From positions 192,001 to 256,000 of the forward strand of contig CAWBWI010000002.1 of the NCBI GenBank assembly GCA_963792585.1: DNA of 64,000 nucleotides, written 5' to 3'. Shown one piece after another: positions 44,889-59,984 of this stretch (within the stretch, counting starts at the first letter, position 1; each line of letters starts with the position of its first letter). The notes under the pieces were generated by a model. The model was not told the DNA's origin. It saw nothing but the letters and a program-made list of their open reading frames with translations, and did not search any database. The position numbers were made by a program, and so were the translations under genes. This DNA is from Candidatus Eiseniibacteriota bacterium. GTDB lineage: Bacteria > Eisenbacteria > RBG-16-71-46 > CAIMUX01 > VGJL01.

Positions 44889-45136
44889 CCAGCAGATGAG
44901 GGCGATCTCGCGATAGGCCGGGCGCCCGCCAGCGTGGACGAGATCGACATGCATCGCAGGGAGCCGCGGAGCATCGAGCGGGTCCTGACGTCCGGAGTTC
45001 TCCACGAGGATCATAGCCGTGCCCCGATCGGGGAGAGCGTATCAACCTCCACCGGATGGCGACTTCTCACCAGTCGATCCGGCGTCCAGATACGCACGTC
45101 CCTTGCATCGGCATCCACGATTTGGAGGCAGAACCC

Positions 45137-46108
45137 ATGCTCAATCTCGTTTCAGCCCCCAGTCCTGCCGCACGTTCCTTTCTCTGCGAATTCGTCGGTT
45201 TTCTCATAGCGTCCTTGTTTCTCGCGGTTTCCTCAGCAGGCGCCACCGTGACCTTCGCGTCTCAGTTCCGCGACGTCACCACCTTTGCGACCGTGGATCG
45301 TGTCCAGGGCGAGGATCCCTTCTGCACGAGCGACGAATCATCGGATCAGGGCGGAGGATTCGATCAGACGGTCAGCTGCCAGGCCGGCGAGGGTGGGAAT
45401 CGGGCCCTCGGCACCGCGTCGCAACTTTCCTATGTCCAACTCCCGACCCTCATCGCGGAGGGATCCTTCCAGGCGACCGCCGAGATCGACGGCGAAGCGA
45501 CGTTTGCCGAGGGCTTCGGCGGGAGCCGGTTAATCTCCGAGTTCTCTGTCGACGAGCCGATCGAGATCCGCCTCATGGCGACGATCTTCGCCGACGGCAA
45601 CGGGACGGCGAACCTGGTCTTCCGCGTCAAGGACGGAACGCTCTTCGTCTACCGGTCGATTCATGACACCAGCGATTCGATCGATGAGCGGATCACGCTC
45701 CCCCCGGGAGTGTACGAGTTGACGGCCACCGTCGGCGGCTACGGCCAGGCGCTTCAAGGCGGGGGAGGCGAGCCGGCCCGCGGGAGCTTCGCGCTTTCGA
45801 TGCACTTCCCCGACGCGGCGGATGTGGAACCGCCAACCGCCTTTGCCTCGGCCCGCTCGATCCCGGGGATCGTCCCGAATCCCGTGCGCTCCCAAGCGCG
45901 AATCCTCCCCGTTGCCGGATCGGGGCCCTTGGGCGGTGACGTCGACATCCTCAACCTCGCGGGACGGGCGGTGCGACGCCTGCAGGACCTGCCACCGCAG
46001 GGATTGGACTGGGACGTCACGGATGATGCGGGCCGTCCCTTGCCTGCCGGGATCTACTTCGTGCGCGACGCCATGGGCCGATCGAGCAAGGCGATCGTTC
46101 TGCGGTAG
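45137..46108 (+). CDS. Secreted hypothetical protein with C-terminal FlgD-Ig/T9SS-like domain
   Basis: GGAGG RBS; signal peptide; VPNPVR...NLAGRAVRRL...WDVTDDAGRPLPAGIYFVR...IVLR. Confidence 0.8.
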   Translation: MLNLVSAPSPAARSFLCEFVGFLIASLFLAVSSAGATVTFASQFRDVTTFATVDRVQGEDPFCTSDESSDQGGGFDQTVSCQAGEGGNRALGTASQLSYVQLPTLIAEGSFQATAEIDGEATFAEGFGGSRLISEFSVDEPIEIRLMATIFADGNGTANLVFRVKDGTLFVYRSIHDTSDSIDERITLPPGVYELTATVGGYGQALQGGGGEPARGSFALSMHFPDAADVEPPTAFASARSIPGIVPNPVRSQARILPVAGSGPLGGDVDILNLAGRAVRRLQDLPPQGLDWDVTDDAGRPLPAGIYFVRDAMGRSSKAIVLR

Positions 46109-49455: not shown

Positions 49456-49603
49456 TCCACCGGTTGTCCGCCCTGTAATTGTGGGTCGAGGCCGGATTGG
49501 CATGCCTCTCGTTTGCGGCGCGCCGGTTGGCCTTGCCGACGGCGAAGCGGGTACGCCCGCTTCGCCCGACGGCATCTCAGACGAAGAAGTTCGAGGAGAC
49601 CCG

Positions 49604-51238
49604 ATGCGCATCCTGTTCATCTGTCCGCGCTTTCCCGATTCGTTGTGGAACTTCCGAGGCATCGAGAAACTCGTTGGCGTGCAGTCCTCGCAGGCGCCGA
49701 TCGGGCTGGCGACGGTCGCCGCCCTCACTCCGCCTGAGTTCGATGTCTCGCTGGTGGACGAGAACCTGGATCCGATCGACTTCGAGGCGGCATGCGACGT
49801 CGTCGCAATCTCGTGCTTCAACGTCCAGTGGTCGCGCGCGCTCGAGATCGCCGGCGAGTTTCGGAAGCGCGGGCGCCTGATCGTGATCGGCGGTCCCTAC
49901 CCGACCCTCTGCCCCGAACGCTTCGTGGGCGTCGCCGACGCCCTCTTCGTGGGAGAGGCTGAGTACACCTGGCCGAGATTCTGCCGGGACCTGCTCGAGG
50001 GCAGGACGCCGGACTCCACCTATGAACAGGAGCGGGGGAAGGTCAAGATGACCGACTCTCCCATCCCACGTTACGAGCTGTTGTCAGCGGAGAGATATCT
50101 CTATCACTATGTCCAGACCACGCGGGGCTGCCCCTTCCAGTGCGAGTTCTGCGACATCATCGTGACCGACGGCCGCGTCCCCAGGACCAAGACCGTGGAG
50201 CAGGTGATGAACGAGGTGGAGACGATCCGCCGGCTCGGGGCCCGGTACATCTCCTTCTCCGACGCCAACCTGATCGCCAACCCGAAATACGCCGAGCGAT
50301 TGCTCACCGCGCTGAGGGATTTCGGCGCCGCCAACGGCTACCCGATCCGCTTCTCGGGGGAGTTGACGCTGAACGTCGCGGAGTTCCCGAAGATCCTCGA
50401 ACTTCTGCGTGACAGCAATTTCGAGAGCGTCTTCATCGGTGTGGAGTCGCCGCGGTCGGAAAGCCTCCTTGAAGCGGGAAAGGGACAGAATGTTCGCGGA
50501 TCGCTGATCGATCGCATCCGAACGGTTCAGTCCCACAACCTGCTCGTGATCGCCGGGATGATCGTCGGCTTCGACACCGACGACGTCGGGATCTTCCAGG
50601 ACACCTTCGACTTCCTGCAGGATGCCGGCATCGCCTTTACGACCGCCGGGGTGCTCTTCGCCATCGAACACACACCGCTGCACACGCGCCTGCAGAACGA
50701 GGGCCGCCTCCGGGAGTTCGATATCAGCAAGGCGCAGGTTCACGGGAGCGCCGATCTCAACTTCGTGCCCAAGGGAATGACGGCCGAGGAGTTGCTGCAC
50801 GGATACCGATGGATGATCCGCGCCCTGTACCGGTACGAAGCCTACGCGGAGAGGCTGGTGCGCGGGTTGGAGGCGTACGGCCCGACTCCGGCCGCCGCCC
50901 GGGGATCCGCAAAGCAGCCGGGAACAAAGCAACTTGGCGCGGTCGGGCGGATCCTTTCCTACTTCTTGTGGACGCGGGACGCGGCCAGGCGGCGGTTCTT
51001 CTTGAGAACCGTGTGGCGGGTCATGCGGCGGCGTCCCTCCATGCAGAAGCTCGTCATCGCCGTGACCTACATGACGGTCCACAAGCACTTCCATGAGTAC
51101 GTAGAGCGCATCCACGGCGAACCGGAGACCTCGGACCGCCAATCCCCGTTTTCGGTGGCCGGGGGAGCAAAGCTCCCGGTCCGAGCGGTTGCACGCTTGC
51201 GCGCCTCTCGGGCGCCGGCCGACACCGTGAGCGTGTAG
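49604..51238 (+). CDS. B12-binding radical SAM protein (DUF4070-type C-terminus)
   Basis: PIGLATVAALTP, VDEN, IGGPYPT, GEAE, TRGCPFQCEFC (CxxxCxxC), VFIGVES, MIVGFDTD; GAGGAG RBS. Confidence 0.88.
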   Translation: MRILFICPRFPDSLWNFRGIEKLVGVQSSQAPIGLATVAALTPPEFDVSLVDENLDPIDFEAACDVVAISCFNVQWSRALEIAGEFRKRGRLIVIGGPYPTLCPERFVGVADALFVGEAEYTWPRFCRDLLEGRTPDSTYEQERGKVKMTDSPIPRYELLSAERYLYHYVQTTRGCPFQCEFCDIIVTDGRVPRTKTVEQVMNEVETIRRLGARYISFSDANLIANPKYAERLLTALRDFGAANGYPIRFSGELTLNVAEFPKILELLRDSNFESVFIGVESPRSESLLEAGKGQNVRGSLIDRIRTVQSHNLLVIAGMIVGFDTDDVGIFQDTFDFLQDAGIAFTTAGVLFAIEHTPLHTRLQNEGRLREFDISKAQVHGSADLNFVPKGMTAEELLHGYRWMIRALYRYEAYAERLVRGLEAYGPTPAAARGSAKQPGTKQLGAVGRILSYFLWTRDAARRRFFLRTVWRVMRRRPSMQKLVIAVTYMTVHKHFHEYVERIHGEPETSDRQSPFSVAGGAKLPVRAVARLRASRAPADTVSV

Positions 51239-51275: not shown

Positions 51276-53138
51276 TCAGTTCATCAGAGACGCGATCTTC
51301 GCCTCGGCATCCGCGTGCAGGGTCGGCGGCGCCCCGAAGAAGGTGGCCGTCGAGCGGCCTTCGCGATCGAAGAGAAGCAGGGTCGGCAGAGCGCTCACGT
51401 CGCCAAAGGAGCGCGCTGCCTCCGGAGTGCCCATCGCCCAACGGAGGTCTTGTCCGAGCCCGCCGACGAATGCGCGAACTTTTCCTGGATCCGACTGGAC
51501 CGCCAGCGCGAGCACGACGAGGCGGTCTCCGTATTGCCGCTTCAACCCCCCGAGCCAGCGGAGCGTGGTTCGACATGGGGGGCACCACGGAGCCCAGAAA
51601 TCCACGATGACCACCCGCCCACGGAGTTCCTCACGGGTGATCGGCACGCCCTCGAGATCCGTCAGGCTGAAGTCGGGGAGATCGGTGATTCGGGCGTCGG
51701 CGGCCGGTCTCGCCTCGCGTCTGGCCTCTTCCTGTCGACCTTCGAGAATCAGGCCGATCGTACGGGAGAGATCGCCACGGAAGCGGGCATGGCTCTCCGG
51801 CGTCTGGAGCGGGGCGTATCGACCCCCCGACTCCGACTCGCCCTTGCCGTAGAAGCCGAAGTCGTTCGGCGTGGCGACCAGCACGTCGTCCACGAAGATC
51901 GCGGGGTAGCGGGTCACCCCGAATCGCTTGGCCAGCTCCGAGTCGCCGTAGTTCTCCTCGACGAACCGCGCTTCTCCGCCGAACTCCTTCACCACGCCCT
52001 GAGCCAGCAGACCTGCCGGATCGGAGAGGTTTCAGGTGTAGGGCCAGCGAACGAGCGTGACGGTCACCCGCGGTGTCGGCTTCCCGTCTGGTGGTGGCGC
52101 CGGCTCGAACAGGGCGAGGTAGCGGGGCAGGACATCGGTGTCGACGGCAATCGCGACGGCAGATGCCGTGTCGGCCGTCGAACCCGCGAGGTCCGCCTGC
52201 GCGATCTCCAGGAAGAGCCGACCGAGCGTGTGATCCACCTCGCCGGGCGACAGACGCCGATCCCACTCCACCAGGCGCGCCCTCATCTCATTCGCGTCGA
52301 CCCCCGCCCCGTTTCCGCGGATGGGAGCGAAGCGGAGGGCCGCCTGCAGGTAGCGGAGCGCCGCGCCATGGCGAAGCCCGGCAGCATTCAGTTCTCGGGC
52401 TTCCTTGAGGCTCGAGCCGAGCGTGATGAACTCGGCATGGCGGTCGATCGAAGCCGGTGGACGATAGGCGCGGAGCACCGCGTCCTCGAGGGCGTCGAGC
52501 TCGGGGTCGAGCGGCCGCAGTTCCCGGACGGTCGGTCCGGGGGGGATCGAGAGGGTGCGGCAGAAGGCCGCGAGATCGCGTTGCGCGCGCGCATAGCCCA
52601 GGTAGAAGAAGCCGGAAGCCGGGTCCGTGGCCCGTTCGAAATCGACGCTCGCCTCATAGTAGACCTTCACCTGGGGGAGGGCCGTCTCCAACAGCGCGCG
52701 CACTGCGGCCGGATGCACATCAACCTCGGCATCGGGCGAGATCGTCGTGAGCTCTGCCGCCAAGTCCGACCCCATCCGCTTCCACTCGGCAAGGAATGCG
52801 GTCGAATCCCGGCTCTCCGCGGCCGGGATCCCCTCCACGTACTTCGTTGCCGCGAGGTTCCCCTGCGCTGCAACCAGGCGGGAAAGGGCGAGCCAGCGGC
52901 GCCCGTCGTGAAGCGCCTCCGCCGCACGCTCCAGCACCGGCCCGCTGACCTGCTTGACCTGAGTCCACATCTCGTCTGTAGACGGATTGTCCTGGATGTA
53001 GGAACTCCAGCGCGCAATCTCCGCCTCGATGGGGTCGCGCACGGGCGCCCCGTCACCGCCCGCCGAGATGGCGGGGATCGGCAGAAGGCAGGCCACTAGG
53101 GTCGCGCCGGACAGGAACCTCCTTCGCACAAAGCGCAT
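51276..53138 (-). CDS. Probable exported selenoprotein, 620 aa: helical domain + thioredoxin-like UxxS domain + TlpA/ResA-like WCPPC domain (Sec369, UGA at 52034-52032)
   Basis: Track ORFs 52032..53138 and 51276..51995 are in the same frame with a single TGA between them. Read-through gives VTVTLVRWPYT-U-NLSDPAGLLAQGVVKEFGG...FGVTRYPAIFVDD; a SECIS-like hairpin follows; GAGGTG RBS at the start. Confidence 0.85.
52004..52034 (-). promoter_or_regulatory. Bacterial SECIS element
   Basis: UGA-AACCUCUCCGAU-CCGGCA[GGUC]UGCUGG hairpin; apical GCAGGUCUGC (52016-52007) starts 15 nt after UGA, as recalled for the E. coli fdhF SECIS. Confidence 0.8.
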
Positions 53139-53197
53139 CGGTCACCTCGGCGCGATCGCCGATCCCCGGTGCCCGCGGGCCGGCCGGCATCCGGGCG

Positions 53198-55252
53198 TCA
53201 CCAGATGCTCACCCGCTTCGACTCCTCGCGATACATCTTGTCCCCCGGCTTCACGCCGAAGGTCGTGTAGAACTCCGGGATGTTTGGAAGGGGACCGTTG
53301 ACGCGCAGGAAGTCAGGGGAGTGCACGTCGGTCATGATGAGTTGGGCGAGCATCTCGGGGCGCATGTGTCCCAGCCAGGAAAGGGAATAGCCGAGGAAGA
53401 AGCGCTGGTCCGGGGTGAGGCCGTTGATCACCTCGCCGGTCTTCCACTGATCGGTCTTCTTGAAGGCGTCATAGGCGATCACGACCCCGCCGAGGTCGGC
53501 GATGTTCTCGCCAAGGGTGGCGAGCCCGCGCACGTGCAGGTCGCCTACGACGAATTCGTTGAATTGCTCCACCAGCATCTGCGCCCGTTGGGCGAACTGC
53601 GAGGAATCGGCGGACGTCCACCATGGGCGCATGTTCCCATACGCGTCGTACTGCCGCCCCTCGTCATCGAAACCGTGGGTCAATTCGTGACCGATCGTGG
53701 ACGCTCCCGCGTATCCGTAGAGGATCGCATCGTCCAGGAGCGAATCGGGAACCCCCGGCACGAAGAAGATCGCCGCGGGGAGCACGATCTCGACCTTCGA
53801 ACCGTCGTAGTAGGCGTTGTATGTCTGCGGCGTCATCGACCACTCGGTCAGATCGACCGGTTTGCCCAGCTTGTTGGCCCCATAGCGGAACCACCACTCG
53901 TTGACCCGCAGCTGATTGCGAACGTACGAGTCGGTCTCGATCGAGAGGGCGGAATAGTCCCGCCAGCGATCCGGATAGGCAACCTTCCGCCCGACGCGGC
54001 CGAGCTTCTCGAGGGCCTTCTCCTTTGTCGGCTGGCTCATCCATGTCAGTCTCCGGATCCGGTCGCCGTAGGCGGTCACGATCTCTGCCTCGAGTTTCTC
54101 GTAGCGCGCCTTCGTGGCGGGCGAACAATACTTCCCGACCCAGACCTGGCCCAGGAGTTCCCCAACCGATCCCTCCGTGGCCTCGAGAACCCGCTTCCAC
54201 CGGGGGCGCTGCTCCGTCGTGCCGGTCATGAGGGTGCCGTAGAACCGGAAGTCCTGCCTGTCAAAGGGAGTGCTCAAGTGGTCGGCGAGGGTGTTGATGA
54301 CGCTCCAACGGAGGTAGTCCTTCCACGCCGCGAGCGGAAACGCGTTGAGCGTCGAGTCTGCGCGCGTGAAGAATTCGGGCTGGCCGATCACGAGCGAGTC
54401 GAGGGGTGGGATCCCCATCAGCCCGAGCTGCTCCCTCCAATCGATCGAAGGGGTGAGCTGCGACAGTTGATCCATCGACATCTTGTTGTAGTTCGCGTAT
54501 GGATCGCGCCTTTCCTCCATCGTGCGGGACGCTTCCGCGAGCGAGGTCTCGATCGAGAGGATCGAACGGGCGGCCTCGCGCGCGCGCGCTTCGTCGTCGC
54601 CGAGAAGGCGGAACATCGCCGCGACATGGTCCGGATACGCCTCGCGGATCTTCTTCGTCGTGGGATCGTCGGCGAAATAATAGTCCCGGTCGGGCAGCCC
54701 GAGACCGCCCTGATGGAGGAACACGACGTGGGCGGCGCTGTTCTTGTCGTCCTGTCCGATGTAGAAGCCATAGAGGCTGCGAATGCCAATCACACGCAAA
54801 GCCGCGACGGTCCGAAGCAACTCGTCGCGGGATTGGATGGCGGCGATCCGGTCGAGCTCGGGCCGGATCGGGGCAATGCCTTGCGATTCGATCGAGGCGG
54901 AGTCCATGCCCGCAGTCCAGAAGTCGCCGACCTTCTGTTCGTTGCTCCCCTTCACGGCCCGCTTGGCGGCTGCCGCCTCGCAGATCTCCCGGAGCTGAAG
55001 GTAGATCTCCCTCTGGATCTCTTTTCCGATGCCCCAGTACCGCTCGCTGGGAGGTATCGGGTGGTCCTTGATCCACGCGCCGTTGGCATGGAGGAAGAAG
55101 TCGTCGCCCGGTTTGACGGTGGGATCCATGTTGCGAACGAGCGGGTCGATCGCCGGCGGCAACTTCGGTCCGGCTCCGACGGGCGCGACGACGGCGAATG
55201 CGGCGAACAGAACCAGACCTGACGTGACCCAAGCGGACCAGCGGCAACCCAT
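53198..55252 (-). CDS. pepO: M13-family zinc metallopeptidase (PepO/neprilysin-like), exported
   Basis: Signal peptide; DDFF.HANG.W, QGGLGLPDRDYY, NAYY, GHELTHGFDDEG, GENIADLGG, TDVHSP. Confidence 0.9.
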   Translation of the reverse strand: MGCRWSAWVTSGLVLFAAFAVVAPVGAGPKLPPAIDPLVRNMDPTVKPGDDFFLHANGAWIKDHPIPPSERYWGIGKEIQREIYLQLREICEAAAAKRAVKGSNEQKVGDFWTAGMDSASIESQGIAPIRPELDRIAAIQSRDELLRTVAALRVIGIRSLYGFYIGQDDKNSAAHVVFLHQGGLGLPDRDYYFADDPTTKKIREAYPDHVAAMFRLLGDDEARAREAARSILSIETSLAEASRTMEERRDPYANYNKMSMDQLSQLTPSIDWREQLGLMGIPPLDSLVIGQPEFFTRADSTLNAFPLAAWKDYLRWSVINTLADHLSTPFDRQDFRFYGTLMTGTTEQRPRWKRVLEATEGSVGELLGQVWVGKYCSPATKARYEKLEAEIVTAYGDRIRRLTWMSQPTKEKALEKLGRVGRKVAYPDRWRDYSALSIETDSYVRNQLRVNEWWFRYGANKLGKPVDLTEWSMTPQTYNAYYDGSKVEIVLPAAIFFVPGVPDSLLDDAILYGYAGASTIGHELTHGFDDEGRQYDAYGNMRPWWTSADSSQFAQRAQMLVEQFNEFVVGDLHVRGLATLGENIADLGGVVIAYDAFKKTDQWKTGEVINGLTPDQRFFLGYSLSWLGHMRPEMLAQLIMTDVHSPDFLRVNGPLPNIPEFYTTFGVKPGDKMYREESKRVSIW

Positions 55253-55586
55253 CTTCTCCTCCATTCCGCGCAAAGACAGCACTCTTCGCACAGAATAGGG
55301 AACCGAACGTCACGGGGCCAGAGAGCGTGTTTGCGAACTGCGGATTCGGACGACAATATCCGTAAGGCCTTTCCTAATCGCTCGGCGACCTCGGGGCCGG
55401 ACCGACAGGCGCCGAACCCGTAATTGCTGCATCTGTTTCGAGTTATCGGCCGGGCGGGCCGAGATTGCTGTCCCCCCGCGCAGGCGGGGGAGGGGCCGAT
55501 CGAAGCCCGAGTTGGCGAACCCGCTGGACAGAATGCCGGACTCGGGAGCGTTTCCTCCCGGATGCGCCCCGGATATACTGCCGGCC

Positions 55587-58009: not shown

Positions 58010-59827
58010 TTACCGGAGCAGCAGGACTCTCGTGCACGCCGTCTCGCCCCCCGATCGCAACCTTGCGAAATAGACGCCGCTCGGCAGATGCCGGCCCGCG
58101 GAGTCCCGGCCAAGCCATCGGACTTGGTGACTTCCCGCCGGCATCGAGCCGTGCGCGAGCGTTGCGATCACGCGACCGTCGACCGCCAGGATCGAAAGAT
58201 CTGCCGTTGCGGCGTGCTCGAGCACGTACTGGAGAGTCGGGCCCGCCGGCCCCGGGGTGCGGTCCAGGATGCCGAGGGACAGCCGGCGTCTTTCGTTTCC
58301 GTCCAACGCTCCCGCAGCCGGGTAGCTGAGCATGATCCCCATCCGATCGGCGGCGGCATGCGTGGCATGGGCGGAGATCGCGGAGAAGGAGAAGGAATTG
58401 AATTCGAAAGTCTCGAGATCGTACCCGAGTCCGATCGATCGCTGCTCCCATCCATACGTCGAGCCCGCGAGCGGGGCGTGTGGGGCCGATGCGGGAAGTG
58501 TGGGCGGCATGAAGGCGTGATCGTCGCCAGGCAGCATGAACTCCCAAAGGACCGAGTCTCCGGCGGCGTTTCGCAGGAGCGCCTGCTGGAGATGGACCGC
58601 CGGGCTGCCGTTGGCCAGGTTCGCGGCGTCGTTCCAGGAGAAGCCCCCATCCGTGTACGCCAGGTCCAGCTGCTTGAAGAAACTGCCCATCGACTCCGTG
58701 TAGGTCTGCGGATGTGGACCCCGACTCAGGAGCACCAGCAAGTCGTCACTTGACGACATGCTCACGGTAGCGGCCGGGAAGTACCCCATCCCGGAAAACT
58801 CACCGGCCGCCGGCGTGGTCGTCAGGGAAACCGCTCCGGCGCAGGGGCCCGACCCGGCGGGGCAGGTGAGTGAGTTCAGGCCGAGAGGCACCAGACGGCC
58901 CAGGCCGGTCTGGTCGTCGAGGTCGCCGATGGAGAGGCAGTAGGCCGTCCCACCGTCGGGCACGTTCTCGAGATTCAACGTGACCGTCGTTTGAAGATCG
59001 GGGTCGACGTTCAAATCGGCCGTGGCCATGTCTCCCGTCACCACCAGATTCAACATGTCGGTCTCTCGCCACTGAACGTAGGGGAGCAGCTCCTCCATCG
59101 GCGCCCCCGAGAGGATCGCGTCGGTCGGGATCCTGCCCGAAATCGCCGCGAGCGTGGCCTCGCCGGCGGGCAACCGCAGGACGTAATGGTCCTTGACGAT
59201 CTCGATGAACAACTCCCACTGCTGCGGGATGAAACAATTGGAGGGAACCTCGACCGGCTGCCCCATGACATCGATCGTCTCGGGAGGGCCGAAGAAGTGG
59301 CCAGCGTCGAAGCCAAGCAGGTCATCCATCCGCATCGACGGGACGACGATGGCCATGTCGAGATTGCCGTCCCCCACGTGGAATGAGCCGTTGTTGACGT
59401 CGATCCCGGAGACGGCGTCGCCGACGTTGTAGAGAGGGCCGACCGGGGCGATGGGTGAAAGGGGGATGACGGAGTCGTTCGCATCGACCGAGACGAGCGT
59501 GAAGAAACGGAAGCCCTCGGCCCCGGCGGTGATCATCAGGGGGCCCTGAAGCGCAGGGTTCGTGAAGGTGATTTCTCCGGTGGCCGACGTGAGCCCGTAG
59601 TTGCCCGGATAGAAGGCGCCCGGCATCGTGCCGACCATGACGAATGCGCCCGCCACGGGACTGGTCGTCCCGGCCTGGACGACGCGGACGTGAACCTGCC
59701 CGGCGATGGGGCCTCCTCCCGTGCCGCCCAGCGAGTCCGGCGGCGCCTCGCGAAGCGCCTGTGCTTGACCAAGGCAAGTCACGCTGAGAACCAGAATTGC
59801 ACAAAGTGGGGCGGCGAGCGGTTTCAT
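58010..59827 (-). CDS. Secreted hypothetical protein with C-terminal FlgD-Ig/T9SS-like domain
   Basis: Signal peptide MKPLAAPLCAILVLSVTCLGQAQA; carboxypeptidase-regulatory-like PVAGAFV..G...T...G; tail VDGRVIATL...WLGRDSAGRHLPSGVYFARL. Confidence 0.8.
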   Translation of the reverse strand: MKPLAAPLCAILVLSVTCLGQAQALREAPPDSLGGTGGGPIAGQVHVRVVQAGTTSPVAGAFVMVGTMPGAFYPGNYGLTSATGEITFTNPALQGPLMITAGAEGFRFFTLVSVDANDSVIPLSPIAPVGPLYNVGDAVSGIDVNNGSFHVGDGNLDMAIVVPSMRMDDLLGFDAGHFFGPPETIDVMGQPVEVPSNCFIPQQWELFIEIVKDHYVLRLPAGEATLAAISGRIPTDAILSGAPMEELLPYVQWRETDMLNLVVTGDMATADLNVDPDLQTTVTLNLENVPDGGTAYCLSIGDLDDQTGLGRLVPLGLNSLTCPAGSGPCAGAVSLTTTPAAGEFSGMGYFPAATVSMSSSDDLLVLLSRGPHPQTYTESMGSFFKQLDLAYTDGGFSWNDAANLANGSPAVHLQQALLRNAAGDSVLWEFMLPGDDHAFMPPTLPASAPHAPLAGSTYGWEQRSIGLGYDLETFEFNSFSFSAISAHATHAAADRMGIMLSYPAAGALDGNERRRLSLGILDRTPGPAGPTLQYVLEHAATADLSILAVDGRVIATLAHGSMPAGSHQVRWLGRDSAGRHLPSGVYFARLRSGGETACTRVLLLR

Positions 59828-59984
59828 GGGGGTCCTTTCCGGCGGTGTCGTGCTCCTCGGCCGAGCGGACCGGGCCCGTCGACCGCGATCGATGCCGGAT
59901 GATTCTACCACGAAACCGGTGGCGTGGGTCGCGGGCAAGTCCCGGCTCCCCTCACCCCTGGAGCCGCGACCGGGCTCGGCCCGG

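Follow-up and report, generated by a model that had tools for sequence, protein, structure and literature searches.

The window analysed is a stretch of 64,000 nucleotides from Candidatus Eiseniibacteriota bacterium, and at 51276..53138 on its minus strand is a single frame of 620 codons that runs from an ATG at 53138 to a final TGA at 51278-51276. Its sole in-frame break is another TGA, at 52034-52032, the position of residue 369, and 33 related loci, most of which match the gene at full length with 50-60% identity, are the comparative background for it. A mechanical ORF caller makes two genes of this frame, 53138-52032 (368 aa) and 51995-51276 (239 aa), in the same frame and with a gap of 12 sense codons, and the public protein collection likewise has both pieces as separate proteins, P0002 and P0122. 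Re-reading of the window sequence showed that the coordinates, frame and quoted text in an earlier note on this DNA were correct, with 620 residues for the fused product. That note had also considered the downstream ORF to be without a good ribosome-binding site, and here too it was right: GAGGT, a candidate ribosome-binding site, is 5 nt before the ATG (53144..53148, minus strand), whereas on inspection no GGAG or GAGG precedes the GTG at 51993..51995 (minus strand) that the ORF list and the protein collection take as the start of the downstream piece, and which in the structure model is inside the first helix of a thioredoxin-like domain. Both the gene itself and its neighbour terminate in TGA as well, so the codon has no general sense meaning here. 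The upstream neighbour, on the same strand and 59 nt away, encodes an M13 metallopeptidase (window 53198-55291, minus) and the convergent one is a B12-binding radical SAM gene with DUF4070 (window 49481-51238, plus). Neither is common to the 33 related loci, across which there is no conserved gene neighbourhood or operon, neighbours being shared among close kin only. Further away in the window are genes for two predicted exported proteins, one with a C-terminal FlgD Ig-like domain (58010-59938, minus) and one with no Pfam match (45056-46108, plus). An ORF adjoining seven of the loci studied (L032, L035, L037, L039, L054, L056 and L060) resembles the PF10026 part of P0061, a protein in which that part is fused ahead of the helical domain described below. 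A promoter and terminator scan gave nothing beyond chance level.

What would the product of the whole frame be? The predicted architecture is a signal peptide, a helical domain, a thioredoxin-like UxxS domain (U being selenocysteine, Sec) and a TlpA-like CPPC domain. A structure model of the whole chain, made from a 30-row alignment, has a mean pLDDT of 84.3 and a pTM of 0.82, with helices across 36-342, a beta/alpha domain across 358-476 and the TlpA-like domain across 485-619. The predicted signal peptide, about residues 1-27 (53058..53138, minus), is the only strongly hydrophobic segment, and pLDDT is low over residues 1-32. An N-terminal hydrophobic stretch is present in all 101 intact homologs among the 120 listed, and since the strict twin-arginine motif RRxFL is in just two of these (one being this protein; 11 of 101 have a loose form), export is probably by the general route, with a cleavable general-secretory signal peptide, as judged from these N-termini. 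The earlier note had pointed to a twin-arginine signal, and while an export signal is indeed predicted and RRxFL is present in this N-terminus, the Tat route did not stand; homologs 86-89% identical to this protein are without the FL, and Tat export as a family trait is rejected on the 2/101 against 101/101. The next domain, residues 35-346 or about 310 residues (52101..53036, minus), is predicted to be all-alpha. It was described earlier as matching nothing recognised, and it has indeed no Pfam or NCBIfam family and no PDB sequence match; at 0.9 or more Atlas gave only ‘hypothetical’ clusters for it, and no internal repeat was detected within it (hhalign probability 0.15).

The C-terminal domain, residues 485-620 (51279..51686, minus), scores above cut-off with Pfam Redoxin and AhpC-TSA, and a whole-chain fold search matched DsbE, ResA and TlpA structures, with Z 20.9, rmsd 1.7 and 137 aligned residues to 3gl3, though such whole-chain searches, taken up by matches to this domain, probed only residues 480-620. 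Its CPPC dithiol, Cys519 and Cys522 (51573..51584, minus), has both Cys in 28 of 28 TGA forms, and so the TlpA-like CPPC domain that had been proposed is borne out. It is below the NCBIfam family cut-offs for ResA (53 bits with 170 needed), TlpA (47 of 230) and DsbE (20.5 of 123).

Ahead of it is the domain with the in-frame TGA, residues 357-476 (51711..52070, minus), with the motif W-P-Y-T-U-N-L-S-D-P. It has no Pfam match and no NCBIfam model at E 0.1, PDB sequence searches with it gave nothing significant, and Atlas gave glutaredoxin/Thioredoxin_3 at 0.85, to be taken as a lead only. Alignment by hhalign to a profile of thioredoxins of related genomes gave a probability of 87.5 and a pairwise E of 3.6e-6, that profile having 15 rows, which a script selected from 30 loci and two of which are spurious, with both profiles trimmed 12 residues before the site. 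In the resulting register U369 is at the first Cys, S372 is at the second and Y411-P412 is the cis-Pro loop. Profile alignment and model thus agree on the thioredoxin-like fold put forward in the earlier note, with U at the first and Ser at the second Cys position and a later cis-Pro, the core being beta-alpha-beta-alpha-beta-beta-alpha with the first Cys position and a predicted cis-Pro at 412. However, U falls at the second Cys instead, with a gap, when an HMM is aligned weakly to 3tco (E 0.27), and in the model the helix begins three residues past U369, compared with one past Cys519. Because of that other register and that late helix start UxxS, though the better reading, is not a certain one, and the site is not canonical.

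How is the TGA behaving in relatives? A scan of genome contigs gave the 33 loci, at 50-60% identity; their titles name Acidobacteriota or Thermoanaerobaculia in 32 cases and Binatia in one. TGA is in frame at the aligned site in all 33. To these were added 12 loci from the window's own phylum (own locus excluded) and the best 10 of 80 metagenome loci found with a permuted relative as query, making 55. The site is visible in 53 of them (L073 and L078 are cut, and L063, at a contig edge, is counted as TGA; one genome has two copies, L066 and L074): it is TGA in 52, CGA in one (52032..52034 being the minus-strand position of the codon in the window), and TAA or TAG in none. The CGA case, L009/L071 (G013:C101:56-709), is a decayed remnant in a same-order genome with selA; its helical part is gone, CPPY replaces CPPC, and the hairpin considered below is still intact. 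A sequencing error or a pseudogene as the source of the TGA is rejected on this conservation across related loci. In read runs, the best, as contigs, gave only relatives about 92% identical. At the protein level, 118 of 120 listed homologs, out of 839 found, stop precisely at RWP[YF]T, and two continue through the site with Cys. Searching 1.84 billion representatives with a profile yielded 133 clusters, of which 124 match only downstream of the site, just as a cut at the TGA predicts, and nine span it: six with Cys, one with Arg, one with Asp and one garbled, the Arg and Asp being in two distant proteins, P0296 and P0331. In all there are nine Cys forms (P0005, P0006, P0124, P0272, P0279, P0288, P0289, P0297 and P0300). 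In a tree of 42 rows, from which frameshifted or cut loci were excluded, P0005 and P0006 are in two separate, well-supported groups of TGA forms, a placement that suggests separate Sec-to-Cys changes for the two. The expectation that homologs would have TGA or Cys at residue 369 with conservation on both sides was borne out in these counts, and the flanks of the TGA are actually the most conserved part of the protein, with a mean column identity among the 28 TGA forms of 0.88-0.91, the values for the helical and TlpA domains being 0.67 and 0.76.

The strongest local evidence for reading of the codon as selenocysteine is a SECIS-like hairpin within the coding sequence (52004..52019, minus strand), one that the earlier note had not singled out. 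It has covariation in relatives, and 10 of 10 bases are identical, with an equal offset, to those of E. coli fdhF. Codons 5-9 past the TGA are frozen at the DNA level in the 33 loci: GCA is the hairpin Ala codon in 33 of 33, as against 95 of 2766 Ala codons elsewhere in the same genes, and the Leu codon TTG is in the hairpin in 20 of 33, as against 58 of 1854 Leu codons elsewhere. For the hairpin of seven pairs, 224 of 224 cells are paired, 13 of them with a change on both sides, a result that none of 500 shuffles equalled, though the covariation counts are inflated by related rows and the double change may correspond to few events; controls with the hairpin slid to other positions were only 3-50% paired. 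One of the pairs occurs as G-C in 13 distinct rows and as A-U in 19, the amino acid changing from Gly to Ser. In a count of 52 sites (51 with TGA and the CGA remnant, L063 aside), the pattern is present in 51 (one is cut), with a mismatch at the outermost pair in three. The bacterial SECIS model, as given in the 2026 review (PMC13188914), is a stem-loop with a G in a small loop, 16-37 nt past the UGA, and the present hairpin, at 19 nt downstream of the TGA, has both the small-loop G and a spacing within that range. Folding energy of the single sequence gives no significant support: the 75 nt from the UGA fold no better than shuffles (z 0.54), and their lowest-energy structure is not the SECIS hairpin, another pairing being preferred.

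Selenocysteine insertion needs its own machinery, and a check of the genome for it, as had been advised, found selA, selB, selD and tRNA-Sec (selC), all four above cut-off. Across the 33 host genomes selA is in 30 (above cut-off in 27), selB in 30 and selD in 31, each genome having at least two of the three. SelD of the genome itself (G000:C6:192013-192939, L004) likewise shows a TGA, in frame, where its active-site residue would be. Outside the window, a crude motif scan turned up another four TGA codons that lie in frame within thioredoxin-like surroundings, FWHYT*GPC, FGATW*TYC, FGHVL*GYC and FYAT*GAC, at G000:C3:1081711 (minus), C6:972719 (minus), C6:900851 (minus) and C1:58578 (plus) respectively, and from their motifs these are likely to be further selenoproteins. 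A search for an FdhF-like protein in the same genome, which is 84% complete, gave no match at E 1e-20.

Could the TGA nevertheless be a true stop between two translationally coupled genes, or be an error, or specify some other residue? The division of the gene in two by public annotation is in keeping with a stop, and as recoding of fdhF is just 30-40% efficient in E. coli (PMC4513850, on the figure given there), some truncated product is to be expected even from a read-through gene. Against it, neither TAA nor TAG is ever seen at the 53 sites, contrary to the consistent pair of genes ending in TAA/TAG that the earlier note had named as the outcome counting against its proposal; continuous homologs carry Cys; the split severs a beta strand from its fold; and the permuted forms L075-L077 would retain little beyond a signal peptide. 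A different sense reading is countered by the use of TGA to end this gene and its neighbour. We consider these alternatives, taken together, to be very improbable. With TGA at nearly every visible site, Cys in homologs, an fdhF-like covarying hairpin and Sec machinery in the genome, the two ORFs are very likely one gene in which UGA 369 is read through as selenocysteine, as had been proposed, and on the comparative evidence the protein is very likely a selenoprotein.

The Sec domain, or its Cys counterpart, is not confined to one arrangement. It also occurs with the helical domain and without TlpA, alone after a signal peptide, and in the order Sec domain, TlpA, helical. In the last of these, the permuted L075-L077, the signal peptide is followed by the TGA-bearing Sec domain and the TlpA domain and then by the helical domain (whole in L075/P0315), the TGA, accompanied by the same hairpin, coming about 10 residues past the signal peptide. 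Where present, TlpA is directly after the Sec domain, permuted forms included; the Cys forms P0272, P0297, P0288 and P0289 are without it. Two single cases are of another kind: P0300, one of the 133 representatives, has an ECF sigma factor and a hydrophobic stretch ahead of the Cys form, and P0298, which may be a chimera, has a fragment of the Sec domain followed by a PfkB kinase domain. Because such variant and permuted architectures exist, the Sec domain is the core of the family, with TlpA optional, and a truncated helical product cannot be needed by every member. Clusters at 90% identity passing E 0.001 number 839 for the helical domain and 1417 for the Sec domain, nearly all annotated as two pieces. 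In the window's phylum the domain is in 12 of 206 genomes, and in none of five in the same family; the rows from the phylum need three changes on the tree, which fits patchy loss or transfer there, direction left aside.

What such a protein does has to be approached from its parts. There is about an even chance that it is an exported thiol-disulfide reductase or isomerase of the envelope with an internal relay from CPPC to Sec. SelB would direct Sec insertion at UGA 369, and the general-secretory signal peptide would export the protein and then be cleaved. U369, predicted to be at the attacking-Cys position of the thioredoxin fold, where Ser372 replaces the resolving Cys, would attack a disulfide or an oxidised thiol and be left as a mixed selenenylsulfide or an oxidised selenol. 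As the UxxS site has no resolving Cys an outside reductant would be needed, and the fused CPPC domain, the nearest candidate for it, would resolve or re-reduce the Sec centre acting on oxidised envelope substrates. A DsbD_TM match over cut-off is present elsewhere in the genome, and DsbD is described as feeding periplasmic reductases (PMC13628048); it is on the nearness of CPPC and on this DsbD-type domain that the preference for the relay is based. That the adjacent CPPC domain resolves U369 and is itself fed by the DsbD/CcdA-type membrane protein may be so or not with similar chances. The helical domain might, as a weak suggestion, bind the client or scaffold the two redox domains. Because TlpA is optional and domain order varies, the internal selenol-dithiol relay, which the earlier note had already proposed, is plausible and no more, and since there are Cys forms without TlpA it is not obligatory.

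Two other functions deserve weighing. The protein may instead be an extracytoplasmic peroxidase or a reductase of small molecules (peroxides, metalloid oxides or organohalides) with TlpA as reductant and the helical domain as part of the substrate pocket, and the invariant polar residues of the latter (R81, R87, R147, E151, Y161, H234 and D302, among others) would suit such a pocket. Forms with just a signal peptide and the Sec or Cys domain exist as well, and the catalogue (PMC13188914) lists UxxS for three families, of arsenate reductase, peroxiredoxin-like and rhodanese type. The Sec domain, however, has no Pfam or NCBIfam match to those families, its closest profile match being thioredoxin-like, and we regard this function as unlikely. 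Slightly less likely still is a U/CxxS domain that serves as redox sensor or as a chaperone-like, client-holding module which traps partners as mixed selenenylsulfides, while TlpA serves separate clients and there is no relay. The missing resolving Cys is compatible with trapping, CxxS variants are reported in disulfide isomerases (PMC13628048), and the domain is also seen by itself, in permuted order and, in one protein, after an ECF sigma factor, but that sigma fusion is just one of the 133 representatives, and in both domain orders the Sec domain and TlpA are adjacent. The reductase or isomerase with its relay is the function we prefer. A broader proposal, to be taken tentatively, is of a widespread exported family whose mobile UxxS module takes its fdhF-type SECIS along when domains are shuffled, whose helical domain may have a new fold, and whose fused dithiol domain is an internal relay for an undescribed envelope redox task.

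If true, a large family is added to the roughly 119 prokaryotic selenoprotein families whose number is stated in the 2026 review (PMC13188914), and it is a sign that uncultured Acidobacteriota, among other lineages, put selenium to use beyond the cytoplasm. New thioredoxin-fold selenoprotein families appear regularly and the kind is no surprise, unlike the architecture and its helical domain. To the picture of the family the analysis adds the patchy occurrence in a small phylum, the TGA-bearing permuted forms and the separately placed Cys forms. As the hairpin matches that of E. coli fdhF, E. coli may be able to recode the native gene; if so, Sec insertion and the relay are directly testable there. 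The earlier note did not recognise the architecture among described selenoprotein families, and the comparison agrees: no NCBIfam model, in a library that included those of Haft and Tolstoy 2025, is above cut-off for the fused protein, for its Sec domain or for the Sec domain of the Cys homologs, and in the 2026 catalogue table no row compared has this motif or architecture, the comparison being one of domain and motif descriptions (PMC13188914). In the portions covered, no description of the family is present in the papers on BSepDB (PMC13326102), SelCysML (PMC13745706) and deep-Sep (PMC12013277), whose supplements may bear on novelty, or in the GOS and Olavius papers (PMC2398784, PMC1976440); literature searches by full-text motif and by taxa found nothing describing it. 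The feature is thus a real one, very likely a thioredoxin-fold Sec protein, with an architecture missing from the selenoprotein lists checked.

Its nearest counterparts show what is shared and what is not. The thioredoxin-fold selenoproteins of the 2026 catalogue (Trx/Grx UxxC, WAxxUGC NF041054, TsoB NF045694, SaoT, VPGUxxT and HUIPC) likewise have Sec at the first Cys position and Cys homologs, whereas the motif WP[YF]xUxxSDP and the helical partner are absent from the catalogue rows compared (PMC13188914); NF041054 and NF045694 match nothing but the TlpA domain, scoring 21.7 and 12.5 bits where the cut-offs are 300 and 805. The UxxS selenoproteins (arsenate reductase TIGR00014, the cd02970 peroxiredoxin-like family and rhodanese form 1) have that motif in common with the present protein, but there is no sequence match to its Sec domain and their architecture is other. 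The extracytoplasmic dithiol reductases TlpA, ResA, CcmG and DsbE have the same fold and WCxxC as the C-terminal domain, which here comes third in a longer chain, after the Sec domain, and is far under cut-off in NCBIfam scores. By analogy only, we take the Neisseria PilB Trx-MsrA-MsrB fusion to follow the same logic, a TlpA-like domain that recycles the catalytic Cys domain fused to it, though with Msr domains, of which there are none here. In RNA there is a likeness to E. coli fdhF, the gene for formate dehydrogenase H with its Sec-UGA140, where the same 10 bases are at an offset of 18 from the first base of the UGA. The proteins are unrelated and the lower stems are not alike, and this family also departs from fdhF in its covarying G-C/A-U pair, by which Gly and Ser are exchanged.
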